Origin: Eledone cirrhosa
Taxonomy: Eukaryota
Length of the DNA: 64,000 bases
Direction of reading: 5' to 3'
Assembly (NCBI GenBank): GCA_964016885.1
Contig: OZ024753.1
Location: 29,326,001-29,390,000 of the forward strand
The translations under genes and the position numbers were made by a program. Shown here in pieces: positions 1,202 to 63,970 of the stretch. Each line of letters opens with the position of its first letter. The first letter of the stretch is position 1. A model generated the notes under the pieces. The model saw only the letters and a program-made list of their open reading frames with translations, had not been told where the DNA came from and did not search any database.

Positions 1202-1277
1202 TACCCACTCTACTACCTCAAGTATTGAGTACTTTGGTGCGTTATGGTCCACCTGGTTCCTTACCACATTTCCTTCG

Positions 1278-1331
<54 letters not shown>

Positions 1332-1338
<7 letters not shown>

Positions 1339-3185
1339 TAACAGATTAAAGTTTAAGCAAAGAATCGCTGCTTTCACCCTTAACGGGATCTTCTGAAACT
1401 AACAAAGTCAATCTGTAAACGCAGAAGTGGATATTTCAAAAAACGTTGCAACCGGAGGAAGACAGGAAGACGATACTTTGGTTCATGGTGACGTTCCCTG
1501 GCAAAGAACGGGAAAAAACGAATATATACGTCATTAATAGGAGCGGTGAAAAACAATTACGCGCAAAGACAGAACCACGTTTATGGTATAAAAGAGGTCG
1601 TAGACTAATGTTCTCTTAGGTGGTGCATAGAGACGTTCTCTGGCAATGAACGAAAAAAACGAAGATAATACGTCATATGTGGAGCGGGGAGAAAACCACG
1701 CAAAGACAAAACCACGTAAATGGTATAGCAGAAGTCGTAGACTAAAATTCTAACTAGGAGACCGAATGAATCTCCGCTACAGAGTTAAGAACAAAGTAAA
1801 TAAATACAATACAGAAGTAATAGAAATAAATAAATACATACACGCAAACAAATACGTACATACACAAGCATACGCAAAAACTTACCATAGGTAAACAAAA
1901 CCACGCACATATAAATATGTGTATGTGTGTGTATGCGTGTATACAAATAAATAAATAATTATATAAACGTATATAAATAAATAAATACGTATATAACAAG
2001 CGCACACACATACCTATATGTAAATACACGAATGTTCGGAGACGTAAGTCAACCAAAACATGAAGTACACATATACACACGCCCTACATACGTACGAACC
2101 TGCATGCTTACACAGACGCAAAACTCCCGTATACACATAGCCGAACCATATGTACCAGAATATATAAAAAAAATATACGCCATAACAATCAAATATACGT
2201 ACGAGAAGGTATACGTACCTTCACAAAACATACGGGTAATATATACTTACCTATGCAAATAAGTAAAGGTATAAACCAAACATATACTTAGCTCCCACAT
2301 CAAGACGTAAAATATCCACGTATAGATCGTACTATCCGTTAGGGTATAACGTGGGGCTGTAATACAGGAAAGTTTTGTGCAATTTATGTTTACAAGCCGA
2401 AATTGCCTCAGATTTTTTGTTTAAGATGTGGTCTGTGGCGTAGAGTATTTCCAGGGCCTCAGCGGCGCAGAGGTCACATGGTCTTTTATTTCCGTTATAC
2501 GATCTAGCCCTAGCTAGGATCTCCCAGTGTAACTTATATTGGGTCAGGTTGTCATTTAGACTCCAGATATAAGCTGAAAGTGACGTCATATTCCTTCTTA
2601 GAGGGTAACGAAAAGAATGGGTATACATGTAAAGACGCTGCTTGAATCTATTGGCGGTTAACCCTATGTAGGCCCTACGGGACGTGGGTGTTTCAACCTT
2701 ACATTTGTAGACAATGTTACTAGAGAGGCATTTCCCGGATAGGGGGCAATCAACCCGATTCCTACAATTACAGTTAGTACCAACTACAGTGTTGCACGTG
2801 TTCCTACGGCTAGGTAGTTTAGCTAAATTTGAAGCTGTGATGTTATGTGCAAGGTTAGGAGTCGTAGAGTAAGAAATTTTAATAGTATTTCTATTAAAAA
2901 TTTTACTATATTTATGTGTAGGGGGAAAATGCTTCGTAATAAGGGAAAGAAAGATCTTAGCTAATGGTGTGGCCACCTCCATATTATATGGTGGGTTATA
3001 CCAACAAATGCGACGGGATTTATTTCTTCTAGGTCTATTTTCGTACTCTGTATATGCTACCTTATCGACAAATCCACTTCGAGCAAGAGCTTCATTGTAA
3101 TAAGTGGAATGGTCGTTGAAAATACGCTCGTTGGTGGAAAGACGGGAAAGCCTCAACGAAACGTTTCTTACCAGGTTCTTACACA
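1332..3185 (-). mobile_element. 5'-truncated Penelope-like retroelement (PLE): end of RT/linker + GIY-YIG ORF, ~1-kb 3' UTR, hammerhead-like terminus abutting (TA)n
   Basis: Contains ORF 2332-3213(-). Downstream on the minus strand it runs to CAGAAGA-TCCCGTTAAGGGT-GAAAG (~1395-1370) and ends in a (TA)n tract. Confidence 0.85.
2332..3185 (-). pseudogene. PLE polyprotein C-terminal fragment with GIY-YIG endonuclease
   Basis: Motifs WYNPPY, KIFNRNTIKISYS, CNCR..CPLSGKCL, NIVYKC...AYIGLT..FKQR and CDLC..E are typical of PLE linker plus GIY-YIG. The RT core is absent. Confidence 0.9.
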
Positions 3186-3199
3186 TATATATGTTTTCT

Positions 3200-3597
3200 C
3201 CAAGATCAACCATGAATGAAGAGAACTATAATCTGAAACGATGCAACAGGTCGCTGATGAAAGGAAGACCAACTAATACCGGGGATTGTCCAGCCGCTTC
3301 CTCTTCGCACTGGTCACCGTCGAGATTCCAACCGTACATGGACCCCGTACTGCTGAGCTCCTCCCCAAGATCGGAACGTCACCAGCCCGTCTGAGGAAGG
3401 GGCCCCGCGAGATAGGGTGGCTGTTTCAGCGGGTGTCGCTGTCCATTGTCTGCGAGAATGCTTTTTACGGTCTTCTCCGCAGGGCGCAGCCCCACTACTA
3501 CCGCGCCCTAGTCCCAGAAGCCAACACCCTCCCTCTTCCCCCTCCCATTCTTCTGTGATCCTAGAAACCCTTGCCTTTCCCTTCCTTTTCCGTTTTC
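3200..3597 (+). mobile_element. CRE-clade non-LTR retrotransposon 3' fragment (restriction-like endonuclease C-terminus + 3' UTR)
   Basis: Frame from 3241 reads ADERKTN*YRGLSSRFLFALVTVE...GP...IG.....REIGWLFQRVSLSIVCENAF, matching the K..KY...F.P.AVET.G..G...L.QR.S....GNA pattern. A second copy of its 3' UTR is at ~4024-4138. Confidence 0.7.
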
Positions 3598-3646
3598 ATA
3601 ACCACAAAAGACACTCATTTTTTTACAATAAAACATATTCCTCTGC

Positions 3647-3850
3647 ATTGGCAGTATCAGTAGAGGGTCGGATGTCATGCGTTGCAGCATAGAGTTACGC
3701 TCCTTTACGGTCTGAGTTCAAAGGTTAACTTTTCCTTTCATCCTTACGGGGTCGATCAAATAAAGCACCAGTAATGCACTGGGTCGATTTAATCGACATT
3801 CCCCTCCCCTTAAAAAAATTGCTGGCCTTGTGCTTAAAGTAGAAGCAATT
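3647..3850 (+). mobile_element. tRNA-derived SINE family 1, long variant
   Basis: A-box tggcagtatc.g, B-box gagttcaaa, core cctttcatccttacggggtcgat, gtcgatttaatcgac palindrome, tail ggccttgtgc..aaagtagaa.caatt. Confidence 0.85.
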
Positions 3851-4234
3851 ATTTCCGTTACATTTAAGAAAGAGGTTAGGGCATCAAATCTGAAAACTCC
3901 ACGGCATAAGGGCTAGTTGGTATTGTGTTAACGAAATGTTAATTATTAATCCGAAATTATTAAATAAAATTATTGAATAAAATTATTAATCCGAAATATA
4001 TAAGTAAAGAGAAATCAATGAATAATGCTTTTACGGTCTTATCCGCGGACCGCAACCTAGGCCTAGAACCAATAACACTTCCCCTTCTCATTCTTTTGTG
4101 ACCGCAGAGTACTTGACCCTTTCCTTCATTTTCCGTTTCTAAATATCTGTAGTGTTGTTGTTATTTGAAATAGATTTGTTTATGATTTTTTTTTATGTTT
4201 ATTCACAATAAATTATTTATTCTGTATGCTTTAA

Positions 4235-4436: not shown

Positions 4437-5263
4437 TTAAACTAAATGAAGGTAGATTATTGAAAAGAAAACATTTTGAATGTCACCTTGAAGGGGTTTA
4501 AAATCTAACATTATAATAGAGGTCATAACTAAAATTATTACTGATAATTAAAAAAGACTTAAATATTAAAAAATAACATCAAATAACCATCTTGTTATTA
4601 AAAACGCGAATCATATACACGTATTGTAGAAAGCAAATATTCTGACACGCTGACAAAGAACAAAATAAGAAGGAAAAAAATCGAAAATTTGCTTGGAAAT
4701 AATTAATTTGTATTTTCTCTCTTTATTAATTAATTAGATTTGATGTTAGATCTCAATTTCATTAATGACTTTAACTGTCATTTATTTCTTTGTAGATGCT
4801 TATGTTAAGTAGCTGGTGACAACACATACACACGGGCACACACACACGGGAACACACACATGAACACAGACAGGAATATATCTTATTTAGTTCTTTAGTT
4901 TGTTTTATTCAACTCAGCTAGGTCAATGCTTTCTCACCATCTTCATATATATATATATATATTATTTATTATTATTACTATATAATATATATATATAATA
5001 TATCTCTCTCTCATATATATGAGAGAGAAAGAGAGATTATATATAGATTATATATATATATTATATAGTAATAATAATAAGTGTGAAAACTAAAATCCGA
5101 AGAGGGCTCGATAAGGATAATATATATAAAAATATATAAAAACCGTAGAGGAAATATTTATTAAAATAAAAGATTAAAGTTTTAAGCAAAGAATCGGTGC
5201 TTTCACTCTTAACGGGATCTTCTGAAAATCAATATATATATATATATTATATCTGCCATATAT

Positions 5264-5314
<51 letters not shown>

Positions 5315-5604
5315 TGTGGTTCAGTAGATTCGTGATTTACTGAGGCAGGAACCAGTAATGAAATTTTGGCTTTGCTTGATTAATAAGTCTTGTGAGCAGT
5401 TCGGGCTGGAGTCGGATCTATAGCATTAATATAGATCCTGAGCTACCCATCTGTGAAACGGTCGTAACTGCGTATAATCAATAAAGACCTTAATGTGAAA
5501 CCTCGCCTTGTTTTCAATATGTGTGTATATATATATATATATATATTGTTATACTTTGGGTGGGTCATGTTGCCAATAAGAAACGAAATTCAGAAACGAA
5601 ATAT

Positions 5605-10553: not shown

Positions 10554-10974
10554 CACATCTAGACATATATATATATATATATCAGAGAAAGAGAGAGTGA
10601 GGTAGAACACTGGAAAGTAATATCTGTAGTGGTAGAGCACTCAGTTCATGACCATTACGAACCGAGGATCCGCTAAGGTGAAACTATTGTTCTCGGTATG
10701 GTGAACTAACTTCTCTCTATATAATACACACACACACACACACACAAAGAGAGACAGGGAGAGAGACAGGGAGAGAGAAAGAGAGACAGGGAGAGAGAAA
10801 GAGAGATAGGGAGAGAGAAAGAGATCTGGGGGGTGTGTCGGTAGTGGTGTAAATATGTTAAAGGAGAAAATTAAAATTAGAACGAACAGGTGACTGAACA
10901 TGGCGAAGAAATTTATCGGATGCTAAAACTGTCAGAGTCGTCGTCCTTGTTATCAGCGTAATCATCATCACCAT

Positions 10975-14954: not shown

Positions 14955-14999
<45 letters not shown>

Positions 15000-15005
<6 letters not shown>

Positions 15006-15382
15006 ATTAAATAAATGGAAACTATATTTATAAAACCATATTTATTTCATTATATATATTTCGGGGATATCATATTAACAATATGCTATGCCTTCCTCAG
15101 ACAAAATACAATATAAACAGTTTTATAGATAAATAGATTCGACATACCGTTATAACACCGACTTCCATTTGAAGAGGTTTAAGCTGGCAGTCTGCCAGCT
15201 TAAACCTCTTCAAATGGAAGTCGGTGTTATAACGGTATGTCGAATCTATTTATCTATAAAACTGTTTATATTGTATTTTGTCTGAGGAAGGCATAGCATA
15301 TTGTTAATATGATATCCCCGAAATATATATAATGAAATAAATATGGTTTTATAAATATAGTTTCCATTTATTTAATATTGTA
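15000..15382. repeat. Perfect palindrome, 191-bp arms, 1-nt loop
   Basis: Centre aagctggcag-t-ctgccagctt at 15191. Confidence 0.95.
15278..15335 (+). ncRNA. Hammerhead motif with extended stem II (degenerate)
   Basis: CUGAGGA-aggcatagcatatt(gtt)aatatgatatcccc-GAAAU(auau)AUA; mirror copy in the left palindrome arm. Confidence 0.55.
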
Positions 15383-15574
15383 AATATACTCCAAATATCT
15401 GTCGAGTGCTTTTATATCAGTTATAAATATTTACTAGTTGTAACCCAACAATTTTAAATATAACTTTCCATATATATATATATACATATATACATATATA
15501 AAGAAGGTGTGGTAAGATGCCAAGTGGACCATAACGTACCAGAGTACTCGATACTTAGGGTAGTAGAGTGGGTA

Positions 15575-15699
15575 ATAGGAAAATTGTCAGGACCCCGACG
15601 GCTGAGCTCCGACCGTTTCGACAGCTAGATCCGAAAAGTTGGGATCTAGCTGTCGAAACGGCCGGAGCTCAGCTGTCGGTATCCTAACTCTTTTCCTAT
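15575..15699. repeat. Imperfect fold-back, same family as 1086-1280
   Basis: gtttcgacagctagatcc(gaaaagttg)ggatctagctgtcgaaac. Confidence 0.85.
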
Positions 15700-16097: not shown

Positions 16098-16411
16098 TTG
16101 AAAGAGTGAAGAATAACATGGTCAACAGTACAAAAAAGGGTTTTATTTACAGTCTGACAATTGTTTCATTGATTAAGTTGTCTAAAAATTGCTTGAAGCA
16201 GTGTCACTCAATTTTAAATATGATGTTACCTTAACCAGATCATCGGAGATAACATATATATATATAGATATATATATGTAGAAGTTCTATTTAAATTGTT
16301 GGGATACAACAAGCAAATATTTTTATAACTGATATAAAGCACTCAACAAATTATTGGAGTAAAAATACGATATATTAACAAATGGAAACTATATTTATAA
16401 AGCCATATTTA

Positions 16412-16472
16412 TTTCATTATACATATTTCAAGGACACCAAGTTAAATTATGGTGTGCTTTCATCAGATAAAA
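16412..16472 (-). ncRNA. Type I hammerhead ribozyme motif, canonical core
   Basis: UUUUAU-CUGAUGA-AAGcACACCA(10 nt)UGGUGUcCUU-GAAAU(augu)AUA-AUGAAA. Confidence 0.7.
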
Positions 16473-16596
16473 TATAATATAGAGCAGTTTTATAAATAAA
16501 TATTGACATACCCTTAAAGAATGCTTCCAACAGAAATGGTCGCATTCTTTAAGGGTATGTCAATATTTATTTATAAAACTGCTCTATATTATATTT
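16470..16596. repeat. Inverted repeat, 55-bp arms, 17-bp spacer
   Basis: Arms 16470-16524 and 16542-16596. Confidence 0.9.
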
Positions 16597-18898: not shown

Positions 18899-19040
18899 GC
18901 GAGAGAGAGAGAGAGGGGGGAGACAGAGAGAGAGAGAGGGGGAGACAGAGAGAGGGGCGAGAGAGGGAGAGAGAGAGAAGAAGTAGTTCCACAACAGTTA
19001 ATTCGCCATAACGAGAACAAATATTTCACCTTATGCGAAT

Positions 19041-20916: not shown

Positions 20917-21415
20917 AAATGAATACAAGGAGTTTAACACCGTTAGAACATATTTATATAACAGTGCGCCTACGTACGTTTCGCCCGGAATGGGCTTATA
21001 TATATATAACGAAGGAATTGTGGTAAGGGGCCAGATGGACCGTAACGCACCAAAGTACTCAATACTTCAATACGTCGAAACGGCTTGAGCTCAGCCGTCG
21101 GGGTCATACTTGTTCCTATATATATATAACAAAGTTGTATCTGATCGAGATGAAGCGAAAGTGTATTTGAATACATAAATGAGAAAACTGATCGCTAGAA
21201 CAGCTGTTAAAAGAGCTAAATGCTGTCAAAGACAGCGATAGGCAAAAATGCCTCAGAGGACAAAAACCAGCGGCCAGTGGTCAACAGAGAGACAATCTAC
21301 AAAGTGGATGAGAGGCAATGAACTGTAGAAAAAATTGAAAGAGGAGAAGGACAAGGAGAAGTGCACTGACACACAGAAGTGACTGGAAGAAGGAAATAGA
21401 GAAACGCACACATAC

Positions 21416-21871: not shown

Positions 21872-23045
21872 TATATAAATGTGTGTGTGTGTGTCTGTGT
21901 GTGTGGGTAAATTCGTTCAACTTTCAAAATATATTCCGATGGCGCAAAAAAAAGAAAACGAATGATATTAGAAATACAAATCGGATAAGCTGTGGAAGTT
22001 ATGAACATTTTGTTTTAGGTTTTCATATTGAATGAGTCAAGGATTAGTGAAGATTAAAGATAGGAAGTGATAACATCAGGTGTAAGAAAAGGTAGAAGAA
22101 GTCAATGTACAGCTGTGTAGATATACTTAGAATCTAAGACGACAGAGCTCTCGGGATTAAGATAACAAATCCAGCCTGAATATATTATGTAAAAGGATAT
22201 TTAGTGAACATGATTCCGGATAATGTGTGTATGTGGGTATGTATATATATATATATATATATATATGCGTGTGTGTGTGTGAATGTGTGTATGTATGTGT
22301 AGGTGTGAATGCGTGTGTGTGTGTATATATATATGTGTGTGTGTGAATGTGTGTATGTATGTGTAGCTGTGAATGTGTGTTTGTATATATGTGAGTGAAT
22401 AAGCATGTATGTATGATTTTATGAATTTATATATTCATGTAGGTATGAATGTATGTGTGTGTGTAAGTATGTATGTATGTACGTGTATGTATATGTGTAT
22501 GCACATATATATTTGTATGTATATGCGTATGTATGTGTGATAAATGCATAAAGATACGACTTTTAATCACTATATTAATTTCTATATCTATACGTGTTTG
22601 TGTGATCGTGTGCATATATACTCACGCACATGACGGTTTGTATGTATATATCCATATATTAATGTATAAGCAAAGAAATATATTTATATATGTGTAGTGT
22701 GTGTGTGTTTATGCTTTTATTTTGAATCGAATTGTGACGCGCGTTTCAGAGATGATTGGCTCAATGTCACCTATAGAACCTATGAATCCGACTCCACTCC
22801 AGCATTGATCTACTCCCCAGACTAGTAATTCAACAGTCTAATGAGAAGACCGATGCTTGAGTCTGGTTCATAACTTCTATAGGTGGCCTGATCCAATCAT
22901 CTGCGAAACAGGTCGTAACAGGTCGATATTCAATAAATACATAAATATATGTAACGAAGCCTTTTTCTTATTATATACACCCTGCTTGTACATAGTGTGC
23001 TCATATTGGTACCACCACCAGCAATTCACTGAATCAGCTATATAT

Positions 23046-23174
23046 ATATTTAATATAGAAATGGCTTCTACAAGACTAGAACTGTTTCATTGGGAGGAAA
23101 TCATCAGAAACCCAGGTGATTTCCTCCGAATGAAACAGTTCTAGTCCTGTAGAAGCCATTTCTATATTAAATAT
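23046..23174. repeat. Inverted repeat, 58-bp arms, 13-nt loop
   Basis: Arms 23046-23103 and 23117-23174. Confidence 0.9.
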
Positions 23175-23433
23175 TTATACTCTGCTATGTACTTAGTACC
23201 TTACTTACTGTGGTTATCCCTGATGAACCCTGGATAAACACATATAACCTGATTAGTTCCTTCGTTGTTTTGGTACTGTATGGTTGGGTTTTGCCTACCA
23301 CAATTTTCAATTTGTCAAGCTATTTAAACGTAATGTTATTACTCTAAAGTTATTGAGTGCTTTGCTACTCATTCCTCATTGTAGGTCGACTTTGCTTGGC
23401 CACAGCCAAAGCTTCGATTTTACTAAGTTTCCA

Positions 23434-24293: not shown

Positions 24294-24361
<68 letters not shown>

Positions 24362-24467
24362 ATGTGAAGACTAAAATCCGGAGAGGGCTCAATAAGGATA
24401 ATATATATATCAGAAGATCCCGTTAAGGGTGAAACCAGCGATCCTTTGCTTAAACTTCAATCTGTTA

Positions 24468-24519
<52 letters not shown>

Positions 24520-25231
24520 TGTGTATACATATGCCGATACATGCACATGTATATGCTTTGTTAAGTTATACTCCTGTATGATTGACTGGAGGTTTAAAAC
24601 CAGCCAACCTCGAGTCAATTATAATAGAGTGGTTCTGCTACTTAGAACGTTGTGTCAACTCACTGTTTAAAATTAACAGTCTCTCCCTTCAGCACTTTGC
24701 TATACACACCCTCCAAATATCTGCTGCATTAAAATTCTGTAATGCTTTAATAAAGTCAGCAATAACATAATGATTACATCATGCACGAAATACGATCACC
24801 ATTTAAAACACACACAGGCACACACATAAATACATACACACACACACACACGCATACCTACATTACATATATACAGACACACATATATATACATACATAT
24901 ATACAGACACACATATATATACATACATACATATACATATATACATACATATACATATATACAGTTAGGGAAGCAGAAAATATATATATATATATACATA
25001 CACATACATATATACATATACACATATATATATATATATACATACATATTATATATATATATACACACATATATATATATACATATACACACACATATAT
25101 ATATATATATACATATACACGCAACACAATAATACACCTAATACACAACCACCCACTAACAAACAGTATGCACAAAACACACTCACACACACATCCCAGC
25201 CCACCTATAACTCCACCACTGCCCATAACAG

Positions 25232-26335
25232 AAATTGTAATTGCCACCTTCCAGAGACTTGTCCATTGAATAACGAATGTTTGCATTCAAACCAAGTGTA
25301 CAGGTGCTCGGTTGAGTCGGACAACCAAACCTGGCACTACATAGGCAGCACTGCAAACACCTTCAAAACTCGTTGGTACACGCATCGTTACGCAATAAAG
25401 CACCCCCAACACCGTTACGTAACGACTCTCGCCGACAAAATTTGGCACTTAAAGGGGAGTAACCGACAATACACCCTTAAATGGACTAAACTCTCACATG
25501 CTCCTCCATACCGGAGTGGGATGAAAACGTGCCCGTTGTGTAATAATGAGCTCTTCCATATCCTAAACTCAGGCCACCAACTACTCAACAACAAAATTGA
25601 AAGGTCAATCTTTTGCCAGCATAAACTAAAAGCGAAGTTCTCACACTTCAAACCTTCAACTAAATCTTAACACTACCTCTCTTCCTTTTCTACCCTAAAT
25701 AACAATTCTACACTCCTAAAAATAGACTATATATGAAATTTAATACTTTCTTCCTTCATCTATTCTCTGGTAAAACTTTCGCCTGTCCACTACCAACTGC
25801 CACTTAATATTCTATCTTCCTTCTCTCTCCCTCTACTCATCACAACTTTTAGCACACAACCCTCCTCCCCCTCCCTTCTTGTAACTTAACTATATTCTAT
25901 ACAAATCCTCTCACACCACCCTATCTCTTGCTCTCCCTACCTCCGTCCCTTTTCTCTCTCTCTCTCTCTCCCTCTCTTTTGCCCCTCTCTCTCTCTGTTC
26001 CTCTATCTTACACTACTACCCCTTATTTCATTTCCTAAGGTCATTTCAACTTTGTATTTTGAAAATTCGGATGCCACAGTATCTTTCTTGATTGCCTATT
26101 ATTACATAGTGTAGCAATAATGGACTGAAATTCTGATGAAACAATTGTTAATACGTGGATTAAATCCTTTTGTAACTGTTTACCTTCGTCCTATTTCTCT
26201 GTTTTGATTACACTCCTCGTTTGTTCGTGTTTCCACTACAGAATCCCTACCAACCTGTCGAGTCACCTTAACGTATGTTGATAACTTTCCTCACAACTTG
26301 TTCTACCAAGCTTTGGAATATTCCTAATTACTGAA
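25232..26335 (+). mobile_element. Second 5'-truncated PLE: GIY-YIG domain (to 25670) + 3' UTR ending at (TA)n
   Basis: [22 protein letters not shown]...HYIGST...FKTRW...CPLC..E. Downstream GAAACAATTGTT hammerhead half-motif at ~26138. Confidence 0.85.
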
Positions 26336-26493
26336 TATATATATATATATATAGAGAAGTAGTAACACATCAATTTTTCTCGGTATGGTGTACTAACTGT
26401 TGTGTTACTACTTCTACCAAACTCGTCCCATGAACTGAGTACTCTACCACTACGGATATATTACCTTCCAGTGTTCTACCTCTCTGCCTCTCT

Positions 26494-37952: not shown

Positions 37953-38043
37953 TAGTAATAATAATAATAAATGTGAAAACTAAAATCCAAAGAGGGCTCG
38001 ATAAAGATAAATATATATCAAATACAGAAGAACCCTAGAGCAA

Positions 38044-38177
38044 ATATTTATTAAAATAACAGATTAAAGTTTAAGCAAAGAAACGCTGCTTTCACCGTTA
38101 ACGGGATATTCTGAAACTGTTATAGGTGAAAGCAGCGATTCTTTGCTTAAACTTTAATCTGTTATTTTAATAAATAT
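38044..38177. repeat. Inverted repeat, 53-bp arms, 28-nt spacer (PLE 3'-end family)
   Basis: Arms 38044-38096 and 38125-38177. Confidence 0.9.
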
Positions 38178-40098
38178 ATATATATACAGAGAGAGAGTGT
38201 GTGACACACACACACACATATATATATATTATATATACGTTTATGTATTTGATGTGAAATCGTGTGTTGAAACAGATATCGTTATATTTAGGATTGGTCA
38301 TGTAGCCAATGTTCGTGTATTGTCCAGGGAGCCGTAAAAATAGCGGAAAGTATGCGGCACGATGTACGAAAATACAGCCTCCAACCGCTAAACTCTAAAG
38401 GATGAATACCAATGGAGGCATCAAAACAGATGAAGCCAGGATATGAAAAGGAGTTTGAATAAATACTTCGAAGCATTTTAATCCGATGCCAAGGCGGTCC
38501 CTAGTCTAGGTCTCACACAATTGCCATATCGCATGTAAGCAACATACATACATGTGCATACACAAGTGATGTATGTGTCTTTAAGATGCGAATACGTATG
38601 GCAACGGCTTACGAGCGCATACTTTCGTTGGATATTGAAATAATACAACCCTGCCCATTTAAATTGAGTTCTTTTTTTTTAGATGCGAATCACATTTATA
38701 TTTCTAACTGTAATTTAGTATTTCTTTAACTGAGCTATAAATCCTTGATTAATTATAATTTGGAATCGCCGAGAACCATTGCCATGACATAAAGTTATGT
38801 TATTTACAATACATCGTTTATGATATTTTTTGTTTGTTTGTTGTGAATTTTTTTGTTGTTGTTGCTGTTTTAACGTAATAAAATTGATCCATGAGGCAAG
38901 CAGAAGATTACACAGAGATCGTAAAAATTAATACTTTCACAAATTACAAGTTTCAAATGGCCTTTGGTAGATTAACTGTTGACTTTTCCAGCATAAATTG
39001 AAACAGCAACAATTAGAATTTTGTACAGGCTACTACGTTAATCAACTCAAAATTACCTGTTACTCAAATACCCAGTTTTTTTTGGGGGGTGGGTGGCATT
39101 TTTCACTGAATACTGCCCTGTAGAAGTAAGTTCTAGCTGAACAGCAGTATTAAGTTTGCAAAGCTGGAAAAAAGTTTTGTATCAATACATTATGTTTAGA
39201 TAGTGAGGCTTGGAAATTCTCATGAGTAGAGAATATATTTATGAAGTTTTAATAATTTGATCTTTAAAGGTGTAGTTTAGAGTATAGATTTTGTTTCACA
39301 ACTCCTTAACGTAATAATTTTTTTATTACCAATTTTCGACTGTTTTGAAGGCTATAGTCACTCTTTCCCTATGTTAAATAATTGGTATAATGCAACACAT
39401 TTAAAGGGGCAATATATATATTTAAATTGTCAATATAACTGACTGTAATACGATGGCCGATGGAATTAAAGTCTATGCTAACTGAGTTGTGATTTGATCT
39501 CAGTAAATAGAGACACAGAATTAAATAATATTTGACATTCTAACGTTTCTAGCAACGAAATACTGTCATATAATCTGTACTACAAAACGCAAAAGCGTGA
39601 CAGTTTCTTAGAAACAGATGGCATTGTAGGAATTATTCTCATCACTGTATTTTTAGGCGGTTAAAAACTGCTAGATTTCATACAATTTCATTCCTCTGAT
39701 GTTCTATTCTTGTGATACATTAGAACGAATAAAATTTTCTGGTCTTTACCTCACACAGAAACATTTAATCAAGGAGATTCCAGAGGTTAGAAACAGCTAC
39801 TAAAAGACACTCCCATTCGATATTTAAACAATCAGAGTCGTTCACCTGCCTTTATTGACATGAATTCCAATTAATGTAAATTTTTTTTTCTTTACACATG
39901 TATATTTAACTGATGAAACGTTTTATTTGGCTCACTAAATTATGTTAACCTCCACATAACCGCATATTCTTCGTTTTAAAAAACATCTCTAGCAAACTTT
40001 CCCATTCATGCTCTATTCTCAGTGTATGTTTTTGTTACTCAAATATATATATTCTCCCCTCGGTTATTATTAGATATGAGAACAGTTAAGACTATGCA

Positions 40099-42198: not shown

Positions 42199-42208
<10 letters not shown>

Positions 42209-42492
42209 AGATCAAAAGATGGTTAAAAGAGTTCCATGTATTTTATTATGCGCATTTCAAAAACAAATATCATCATGCAATAACATTTGTGTTTTCATCA
42301 GATAAAATAGGAAGATATGTTGATTTAAAACTGCACTATCCACAAGTGTTTTTTAACCTTCATATCATGTCTTCCTATTTTATCTGATGAAAACACAAAT
42401 GTTATTGCATGATGATATTTGTATTTGTTTTTGAAATGCGCATAATAAAATACATGGAACTCTTTTAACCATCTTTTGATCTTATATATTAT
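42199..42492. repeat. Inverted repeat, ~120-bp arms, 54-bp spacer
   Basis: Arms 42199-42315 and 42370-42492; right arm carries a 6-bp duplication. Confidence 0.95.
42376..42452 (+). ncRNA. Type I hammerhead ribozyme motif, canonical core, 8-bp helix I
   Basis: UAUUUUAU-CUGAUGA-AAA..long GU-rich hairpin..UUU-GAAAU(gcgc)AUA-AUAAAAUA. Mirror copy at 42239-42309(-). Confidence 0.8.
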
Positions 42493-42763
42493 GTATACTC
42501 CAGTCCTACAAACTGTAGAGTGCTTCTTATCCGATATCTGCATTGCTTTATTGTACTACAATAAAACTTACCTCCTACATATATATATATATATATATAT
42601 ATGTTTGTTGGTTCACCACTGGATAGAATTGATCATTCCGTATGGTCAATCTTGATGTAATATTATGGAGAATATTCAACGTAGTGCAGTTCACCCGACT
42701 TCGTTTGTCTAGTTGGTGGCGCTAATATATATATATATATATACCCAATTTTGATTTGGCTTT

Positions 42764-43569: not shown

Positions 43570-43698
43570 ATATATATATATAATAAATTTCTATATTAAA
43601 TGTGTTGTATACATTCTACTAATGTATTAAGTACCTTACTTACTGTGGTTACCCCCAATTGAACCCGGCACGTGTGTGTGTGTGAGAGAGAGAGAGAG

Positions 43699-46251: not shown

Positions 46252-46271
46252 CGGTAAGTTAGTTCACCATA

Positions 46272-46311
46272 CCGAGAACGATTGTTTCACCTTAGCGGAT
46301 CCTCAGCTCGG
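46272..46311 (-). ncRNA. Minimal type I hammerhead motif
   Basis: CCGAG-CUGAGGA-uCC(gcuaa)GGu-GAAAC(aauc)GUU-CUCGG. Mutated sister copy at ~10660-10696(+). Confidence 0.7.
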
Positions 46312-46583
46312 ACTGGTCATGGTTATACGGAATAGGAAGAAGGTTCTTCGGTATGGTGAACTAACCGTTGTGTTACCATTTCTACCTAACTCGTCCCATG
46401 GACTGAGTGCTCTACCACTACGGATATTACCTTCCAGTGTTCTACCTATATATATATAAAAGGAATATTTAATACATTATTATCAATGCCAAATACACTT
46501 CAACATAGCAAGTTTACGCTCGTGTAATTGTTTCTACTTTTGGCACGAGGCCAGCAATTTGAAGGGAAGTGAAAAGTTGATTC

Positions 46584-50022: not shown

Positions 50023-50576
50023 TGTATGTATGTATATATATATAGTAATAATAATTACGCATATCAAAATCCGAAAAGGGCTCGATAAGGATTTCGATAT
50101 ATAAATATATCAAAAAAAGTATATATAAACCCGTAGAGCAAATATTTATTATTAGTACAGATTAAAATGTAAGCAAAGAATTTCTGCTTTCACCCTATTA
50201 CTGGATTTTTTTGCGGTGTGGGGGGGGGGATACATGTGTATCTAATCAGTGTTGTTTGATCCAAGCAATCTACCAGCTTCTAAGTCTCAGAAGATCACGT
50301 GTAGGCGCGTGACAGAGTGGTTAAAATAATTGGATTCCCAACTGTGAGATTGTGAGTTCGATTCCTTGAGGAAGACTTGGATTTGCGACCGGTAGATAGT
50401 ATCAGCAATGGAAAAGACCAATGGAAACATTGTTTGCTCGGTCAGATTTGACGAGTTCCACTCCACTCATTAAGCGAATGAAGCTTGGGATTTTGTCGAT
50501 CGACATGTGTCTACTCAGGGAGTTTACTTAACATTCCCTATTGAATACACCGGTACTAGAAGTGAAACCCATGCTA

Positions 50577-51558: not shown

Positions 51559-51620
<62 letters not shown>

Positions 51621-51621
51621 G

Positions 51622-51662
51622 CTTTCCTGATGATTTCTCCCGAATGAAACAGCTCTCGTCCT
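51622..51662 (+). ncRNA. Hammerhead-like core
   Basis: CUGAUGA-uUUC(uccc)GAAu-GAAAC(agcu)...; same family as 23046-23174. Helix I is not convincing. Confidence 0.45.
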
Positions 51663-51756
51663 GTAGAAGCCATTTCTAGTATATTAAATATTTATACTCT
51701 GCTATGTATTGAATACCTTACTCATTATAGTCACCCCCGATTGAACCCGGGATTGA

Positions 51757-51848
<92 letters not shown>

Positions 51849-63850: not shown

Positions 63851-63970
63851 AGAAGGTGTGGTAAGATACCAGGTGGCCCGACGGCTGAGCTCCGGTCGTT
63901 TCGACAGCTAGATCAGAACTCTAACTGTCGAAACGGCCGGAGCTCATCCGTCGGGGTCCTGGCTCTTTTC
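63850..63970. repeat. Fold-back copy of the 1086/15500/21008 family
   Basis: ccgacggctgagctccggtcgtttcgacag...ctgtcgaaacggccggagctcatccgtcgg. Confidence 0.85.

Follow-up and report, generated by a model that had tools for sequence, protein, structure and literature searches.

Short hammerhead cassettes in an Eledone cirrhosa genomic window as probable derivatives of a Hydra-clade Penelope-like element, with a variant ribozyme core and a candidate hairpin signal at their ends

Introduction

Are the short noncoding cassettes that recur around a Penelope-like element (PLE) in the genome of Eledone cirrhosa pieces of that element, and if so, what set their ends? The question is raised by a stretch of 64,000 nucleotides (contig OZ024753.1, positions 29,326,001 to 29,390,000; hereafter the window, in whose coordinates all positions are given), which is AT-rich and rich in microsatellites and for which a first-pass annotation had proposed that one cassette family is physically the 3' terminus of a PLE with a GIY-YIG endonuclease. 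That solo hammerhead ribozyme (HHR) cassettes are PLE remnants is already established by published work (PMC4209133); this and the other sources given by identifier are cited from portions of their text. The new parts of the present analysis are an HHR core with A in place of U4 (A4) and a hairpin/tail rule for the ends of the copies.

Results

The PLE copy occupies 1332-3183 on the minus strand and consists of a partial RT/GIY-YIG ORF, a 3' UTR of ~935 nt, a type-I HHR, and a (TA)n tract. The ORF (2332..3183, minus strand), truncated at its 5' end to 283 aa, encodes the RT thumb, a CxCx5C linker (read as CNCRNRVDC), the GIY-YIG endonuclease, and the motifs CxxC (CDLC) and CxH (CKH); its frame is open, with neither stop nor frameshift, and the stop-free minus-strand frame ends at 2332. 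Homologue searches with this ORF, returning 60 longer proteins and 183 of similar length, identified it as the C-terminal 40% of the protein, matching residues ~423-696 of RT+EN proteins of ~705 aa at ~40% identity, with P0054 as the closest relative (61% identity over 122 aa). Full-length relatives carry RWK, DKT, and YRDD upstream and have the CxCx5C linker, the GIY-YIG core, and CxxC/CxH in common with the window ORF, and P0054 has RWR and DKT; both the RWK/DKT region and the RT core are truncated away in the window copy, and YRDD was seen in the ~705-aa relatives only. Pfam gave no match for the window ORF and none above the cut-off for seven relatives. The Hydra clade is described as having a CxCx5C linker, CxxC/CxH flanking conserved E and N, RWK, and DKT rather than DKG (PMC8557442, section 11), and its elements are under 3 kb, insert at (TA)n, and carry 3' HHRs (PMC8557442). 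Judged by these motifs, the window PLE is a member of the Hydra clade, in a family apparently not yet catalogued; a Neptune or Nematis identity was ruled out by the linker motif. At residue 187 of 283 (window ~2623, minus strand), the ORF has Tyr where relatives have a nearly invariant His, and the endonuclease of this copy may therefore be defective. The ORF first delimited as 2332-3213 is a genuine PLE fragment, with homology starting at ~3180 and not at 3213; it stops at a short (TA)4 (3184..3191), probably the other half of the (TA)n target. Within the 64-kb window, neither this ORF nor the UTR upstream of the HHR recurs.

Several other sequences were observed in the window. Next to the PLE 5' end, and facing away from it, is a plus-strand reading frame (~3297-3480) ending in ...EIGWLFQRVSLSIVCENAF, with a weak copy of its 3' part at 4049-4138; it appears to resemble the restriction-like endonuclease at the C terminus of CRE-type non-LTR elements. 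Besides 3644-3699, an abundant dispersed SINE-like repeat occupies at least 10 further sites (among them 35019, 27755, 36314, and 53188), and 5312-5520, a single-copy segment enclosed by (TA)n runs, contains palindromes and a GAAAC motif and may be a degenerate HHR cassette. A second, different Hydra-type PLE fragment (25176-26335, plus strand; 39% aa identity to the first) has CxCx5C and GIY-YIG and a 3' region of ~665 nt up to (TA)n, with a degenerate or uncertain HHR at ~26080-26155 and a possible hairpin at ~26212-26268.

A scan of genome contigs yielded 11 related loci (L001-L011), 10 at 33-46% identity and L011 as a 25-aa match at 64%; these are distant families only, and none is of the window PLE's own family. 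All are eukaryote-type Hydra PLEs within bacterial MAG contigs, presumably host carry-over. Three of the 11 contigs stop inside the ORF and eight have 3' flank, and among the latter a sense-strand HHR was found soon after the ORF by the scan in seven and by eye in the eighth, 80-194 nt past the stop in six. L002 (~1480-4170) is a complete pLTR-ORF-pLTR copy, L005 contains a head-to-tail junction, and the terminal redundancy of L004 is a tail of ~70 nt. The order in related full-length or tandem loci is HHR, hairpin 1, hairpin 2, and ATG.

The 3' UTR of the window PLE (1417..2331, minus strand) measures ~935 nt from the stop to the HHR core, where six related loci have 80-194 nt, and contains microsatellite-like stretches. 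It also contains an unexplained 137-nt tandem duplication (1479-1745; 1.9 copies, 79% matches), preceded by a small minus-strand hairpin near 1758-1776. A type-I hammerhead-like fold of 76 nt (1341..1416, minus strand) was delimited by a relaxed scan (1350-1400) and extension of helix I. Its proximal helix I pairs 1396-1400 with 1350-1354 (5 bp) and, across a 7-nt bulge, its distal helix I pairs 1408-1416 with 1341-1349 (9 bp); the core CAGAAGA lies at 1389-1395 with A4 at 1394, helix II has 3 bp with U and U on its flanks and is followed by GAAA, and helix III has 4-5 bp, with the cleavage triplet CUU and the site at 1355/1354. The core departs from the consensus CUGANGA/GAAA/NUH: C3, G5, A6, G8, A9, GAAA, and UH are kept and U4 is A. 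A compatible fold, a three-way junction in type-I order, has -13.0 kcal/mol and is not the minimum-energy structure, a competing fold having -15.1 (z-score -0.63). In Rfam, the HHR region alone had no hammerhead match at E <= 10 and three chance matches, and for the whole window there was no hammerhead among the 150 listed of 278 weak matches, nearly all of them microsatellite or miRNA noise. The element ends at TTATTTTAAT (site B), which runs into the (TA)n target (1279..1340, minus strand).

It is conceivable that an unrelated, (TA)n-seeking cassette came to lie beside a PLE fragment by chance nesting, considering that the UTR exceeds that of relatives 5-10-fold in length and contains repeats, and that the (TA)n tracts of the window gather many insertions. 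However, the join of UTR and HHR has no TA run. Both helix-I segments are obtainable from only 27 of 127,940 window 30-mers (0.02%), and a helix I completed by the element's own UTR sequence argues that the HHR is native to the PLE; moreover, one orphan cassette has an exact Watson-Crick partner where the PLE HHR has a G-U pair. Order and orientation are as in Hydra elements, and the tail described below bears the Hydra hairpin. We consider chance nesting extremely improbable and derivation of the cassettes from a Hydra-clade PLE nearly certain, and the earlier suggestion that the orphans are linked to PLE machinery is upheld by this extension of helix I and by the HHR after the ORF in relatives.

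BLAST of 1250-3700 against the window placed the last ~65 nt of the PLE at 5120-5227, 24410-24516, 38044-38118, 38119-38186, and 50097-50209, and in five arms this module is 95, 95, 95, 100, and 82% identical to the PLE copy. With up to 3 mismatches allowed, a 23-nt probe taken from the HHR 3' half matched at six places (1355, 5184, 24429, 38073, 38126, and 50171) and at none in 100 shuffles, bearing out the claim that the PLE 3' end recurs at four ORF-less loci. The cassette at 5068..5228 (minus strand), with TA-rich flanks, consists of an HHR module (5160-5227) and a full tail to a second terminus, site A (TTATTACT). The copy reported at 24333-24475 is present, although not as one piece: it contains an inversion, its minus-strand arm (24333..24409) being the 3' half of the tail up to site A and its plus-strand arm (24410..24474) an HHR module that ends at site B, with ~35 nt missing at the inversion junction. 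The geometry of this locus is like that of L1 twin priming. The fold-back recognized at 37953-38177 does comprise two inverted arms, 37953..38118 (minus strand; HHR module with G8 -> U, full tail, bulged hairpin at 37994-38041) and 38119..38177 (plus strand; partial HHR to site B, tail-less). The most diverged orphan (50043..50209, minus strand) has a degenerate core, a full tail, and a bulged hairpin at 50078-50139; its locus had been correctly placed, and the copy reaches ~50209 instead of 50196.

Seven target-joined 3' ends fall at two sites ~95 nt apart, namely, site B for the PLE, 24474, and 38177 and site A for 5068, 24333, 37953, and 50043, and both two-armed loci (24333 and 37953) have one arm of each end type. 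The terminus TTATTTTAAT-(TA)n, as annotated, thus holds for the PLE, 24410-24474, and 38119-38177 but not for 5068, 37953, and 50043, which continue for ~95 nt. This ~95-nt tail is present in whole or in part at all four orphan loci, and the PLE copy is without it; a 29-nt tail probe gave four matches, none at the PLE and none in 100 shuffles. The PLE 3' end and most cassette ends adjoin (TA)n, the exceptions being the left end at 37953 and the right end at 50209. At 37953, the cassette directly adjoins the end of another SINE-like repeat, different from the abundant one at 3644-3699, at ...GGATT. All window copies of the cassette are dispersed or inverted, with no tandem array. Spreading at the DNA level, by microsatellite-mediated recombination or fold-back repair and with no reverse transcription, would account for nearly all ends adjoining (TA)n and for fold-backs being common in the window, yet the ends are confined to two constant internal positions linked to an RNA hairpin, and just one of the arms carries the tail, in line with published PLE insertions (PMC8557442, PMC3846280); such spreading therefore appears very unlikely.

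Directly after site B, and beginning ~52 nt past GAAA in the tail of the window PLE family, there is a bulged hairpin of the pattern RC[U/A]C...UN-G[A/U]GY-[A/G/C]C, 21-36 nt long in most families. Other window cassette families also have it ~50-65 nt past GAAA (1207, 15544, 15388, 16339, and 42497), and a strict scan of the window gave seven matches, four of them in HHR cassettes, compared to a mean of 1.6 and a maximum of 4 in 50 shuffles. In L002, L004, and L005, two copies of the hairpin separate the HHR from the next ATG, and likewise in L001 with the first copy degenerate, the last hairpin lying 13-33 nt upstream of the ATG in these four loci. Hairpins in this position indicate that in relatives the tail opens the next tandem unit; by analogy, the tail of the window cassettes would be the 5' start of the next unit, and hairpin 2 and an ATG are predicted in the window PLE family from its relatives. 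The reading of the cassette as the PLE 3' terminus hence stands as regards the link to the PLE, but over half of the cassette is tail that matches the start of the next unit. Among the sequences of File S7 (PMC8557442), inspection by eye shows the hairpin at the 5' start of Hydra-1_Ajap and, for Hydra-2_Amil, Hydra-2_Ajap, and Hydra-1_Crog, in the 3' tail; in Hydra-1_Obim it is not evident by eye.

The position of the hairpin coincides with the ends of the copies. In 13 of 14 arm pairs from eight families, each consisting of a shorter arm and a longer sibling picked by eye once the hairpin had been noticed, the sequence common to both runs out -1 to +6 nt from a hairpin, with end positions blurred by several nt in TA-rich DNA; the background for a hairpin near an end is 0.6-2% per 100-nt interval. 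In the single miss, the hairpin is degenerate. Left out of the 14 pairs were the L001 3' end, the 63958 arm, the 46284/10596 family (1-nt bulge, CT-repeat flank), and the L007/L008 family (no tailed sibling); L001 is a counter-example, its 3' end falling ~33 nt short of a degenerate hairpin. L002 and L004 end directly before hairpin 2 and the others directly before hairpin 1. The first two reach site A as full-length copies, and a tail is thus not always the mark of a short copy. Pair swaps among 18 hairpins, in a table biased by a search pattern that itself demanded pairing, were 13 G-C and 5 A-U at position 1, 16 U-A and 2 A-U at position 3, and 8 U-A and 10 C-G at the first inner pair. The hairpin and tail of the window PLE family folded no better than shuffles (z -1.7 to +1.2), and folding z-scores were not significant for five HHR and four tail segments. 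A literature search found no title or abstract start describing the hairpin, which may stand in the figures of PMC8557442 or elsewhere. For Poseidon, the limits of the PLE tail have been shown to be set by a pair of RT start sites, and HHR cleavage can be dispensed with in vitro (PMC11167929). Altogether, the comparison of sequences suggests that the hairpin is probably an RT start signal.

Further cassette families were observed in the window. One (1088-1280, 15490-15690, 21007-21119, and 63877-63958) forms fold-backs centred in HHR helix II and has a palindromic helix III loop and the same tail hairpin, the tail being confined to one arm. Long inverted pairs whose cores are canonical (CTGANGA) lie at 14994-15470, 16307-16560, and 42200-42580, also with tail and hairpin on one arm, and a CTGATGA family (23041-23235, 43592-43668, and 51610-51760) has degenerate tail hairpins. 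Another HHR cassette family (10596-10711, 18979-19020, 26358-26490, and 46257-46447) has a hairpin with a 1-nt bulge, and its short arm adjoins (CT)n, not (TA)n.

We then considered the core. As had been noted, A replaces U4 in the copies that keep the core: it was seen in 4/4 arms with a recognisable core, the core of the 50043 copy being a degenerate A-run and the second arm at 38119 beginning within helix II. U4 is present in all 16 HHR matches of related loci (10 distinct sequences), in 6/7 HHR matches of the window, and in all 25 Hydra families of File S2 (PMC8557442), whose descriptor demanded U4; because it demanded CUGANGA, A4 cores would be undetectable by it. In a mutational scan, changes in CUGA led to low activity except for a C3-G8 swap (PMC9901934, section 7), and a natural U4C variant is still sufficient in vivo (PMC3088659). 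By analogy with the low activity of CUGA mutants, the A4 hammerhead is likely to be slow or dead. It had also been suggested that this core is conserved, which was not borne out: the copies are ~5% diverged, with changes also at G8, helix II, and the helix III/15.2-16.2 pair, a pattern that fits neutral decay from an A4 master. As read from these alignments, A4 is common to the copies by descent, with no sign of selection. The intact cleavage site is kept in all copies, implying that templates were uncleaved or re-ligated. Placing U at position 4 in silico raised the probability of helix I from 0.07 to 0.11 and that of helix III from 0.32 to 0.44, a gain too slight to make A4-induced misfolding a strong explanation. 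A splice-acceptor role of TTTCAG, which A4 creates, found no support, as three orphans keep the would-be intron side. A literature search combining "hammerhead" and "U4A" found no paper. Lunse et al. 2017, which reportedly deals with PLE hammerhead variants, may list U4 variants. The portion of PMC11014351 consulted contains nothing on U4.

The 5' ends of the cassettes are also restricted. Heavily 5'-truncated insertions had been proposed as the usual product, and copies are indeed very short in four of the five loci (<230 nt); however, five orphan arms (5/7 arms in all) stop at PLE 1384-1400, whichever 3' site they have, and this clustering within 17 nt indicates that truncation is not random. 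Under a constant-hazard null, with the 17-nt interval set post hoc and exposures estimated by hand, the p value is ~3e-5 without the long copy and ~5e-7 with it (n=6-7). Plain random truncation of full-length RNA, by a low-processivity RT that falls off after ~100-170 nt, would account for the short loci, agrees with the strong 5' truncation described for PLEs (PMC8557442, PMC4209133), and would accommodate the families 15043/15274 and L007, whose arms reach ~85 nt beyond the core. It is nevertheless quite unlikely, given that arms begun ~95 nt apart, at A or B, stop in the same 17 nt (p ~3e-5, post hoc, n=6-7). Starts directly upstream of the core were also found in L008 and L010. An initiator-like YYANWYY is centred on A1400, the 5' end of the longest orphan, a weak indication with the motif at 1% of positions.

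Leader run-off from a pLTR transcript, a structure-induced stop, and a short non-autonomous master each fit the clustered 5' ends. The last would be a separate, pLTR-derived unit of ~165 nt, SINE-like or monomeric retrozyme-like, mobilised in trans by a Hydra protein. It would explain why the three tailed arms are 161-167 nt long, with near-identical 5' ends within a few nt and no upstream UTR; in addition, retrozymes have been proposed as non-autonomous PLE derivatives (10.64898/2026.07.22.740005), and pLTR cis-sequences are sufficient in trans (PMC3846280). On the other hand, there is no tandem array, the orphans are 91% identical to each other versus 95% to the PLE, i.e., a star pattern around the PLE, and the same short architecture in several other window families and related loci suggests a general by-product. 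We therefore regard a separate master as unlikely.

Discussion

For the cassettes as a whole, we favor, as reasonably probable, a mechanism that combines hairpin-set internal initiation, double priming, run-off or stall, and a dispensable ribozyme. The element would be transcribed from tandem or pLTR copies, and the RT/GIY-YIG protein would nick (TA)n and bind the bulged hairpin in the RNA, with cDNA beginning at the AU-rich stretch immediately 5' of the hairpin. Hairpin 1 would give site B and tail-less copies, and hairpin 2 would give site A and tailed ones, while priming from both nicked strands would produce inverted cassettes with the tail on one arm only. Short cassettes would arise where cDNA synthesis gets no further than the 5' edge of the hammerhead, whether by run-off of a transcript with its 5' end near 1400 (pLTR leader) or by stall or snap-back. 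Templates would be uncleaved or re-ligated at the HHR site, and the A4 core, probably slow or inactive, would have been inherited from a master copy able to transpose regardless. More tentatively, it may be that Hydra RTs start by a clade-wide hairpin that stands twice in the 5' leader and so sets the tail, that most solo HHRs are leader run-offs, and that the A4 family transposed on.

Where PLE reverse transcription starts is a long-open question, for which the hairpin is a candidate cis signal; it bears as well on why PLE insertions carry an optional tail and inverted ends. As a structure of 21-36 nt in most families, whose position predicts element ends over eight families, it offers a directly mutable signal. 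The A4 core across a family bears on whether PLE hammerheads need cleavage, and CUGANGA descriptors miss whole families of this kind. If the A4 family was indeed still transposing, it would be natural evidence that HHR cleavage is dispensable, and if the proposed mechanism is true, the ~165-nt cassette with its hairpin would serve as a minimal cis element directing insertion to (TA)n.

Among known systems, the window PLE is closest in design to the Hydra clade (Craig et al. 2021, PMC8557442; e.g., Hydra-1_Obim, Hydra-2_Amil, and Hydra-1/2_Ajap), with which it shares the C-terminal GIY-YIG, CxCx5C, and CxxC/CxH, (TA)n insertion, and a sense HHR near the 3' end. Hydra-1_Obim is a different family, set apart by eye only. 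All 25 HHRs listed there carry U4, and their helix III is short and in most cases palindromic; as in the window, U and U flank helix II in 14/25 and H17 is U in 10/25 (by eye). The window PLE HHR differs from them in A4, G15.2-C16.2, and a non-palindromic loop of 7-9 nt, and the window PLE has a much longer 3' UTR. The 37953-38177 fold-back, like the two-armed locus at 24333, is a miniature of the PLE pattern "inverted pLTR, tail on one end" (PMC8557442, PMC3846280). Like the orphans, the solo or inverted min-HHRs of Cervera and De la Pena 2014 (PMC4209133) are mostly dispersed single motifs from truncated PLEs, and some PLE HHRs are opposite-strand pairs 100-700 bp apart; the core variant given in that source is U3-A8, as opposed to A4 here, and the portion cited does not describe the tail hairpin or the two-end pattern. 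Poseidon PAc (Frangieh et al. 2024, PMC11167929) resembles the present case in its two RT start sites, optional tail, and AT-rich target; protein-binding RNA lies 3' of its start region, and its HHR mutants insert unimpaired in vitro. The PAc tail is 30-40 nt long, lies inside the ORF, and has an AC-rich stem-loop, unlike the window tail, which is ~95 nt long, is 5' UTR by analogy with relatives, and would be bounded by two repeated bulged hairpins. Finally, non-LTR (animal) retrozymes (10.64898/2026.07.22.740005) are, like the orphans, short, non-coding, and PLE-derived with a type-I HHR; they are defined as tandem repeats with intact HHRs, whereas the orphans occur as scattered single units or as inverted pairs, and their core is non-canonical.
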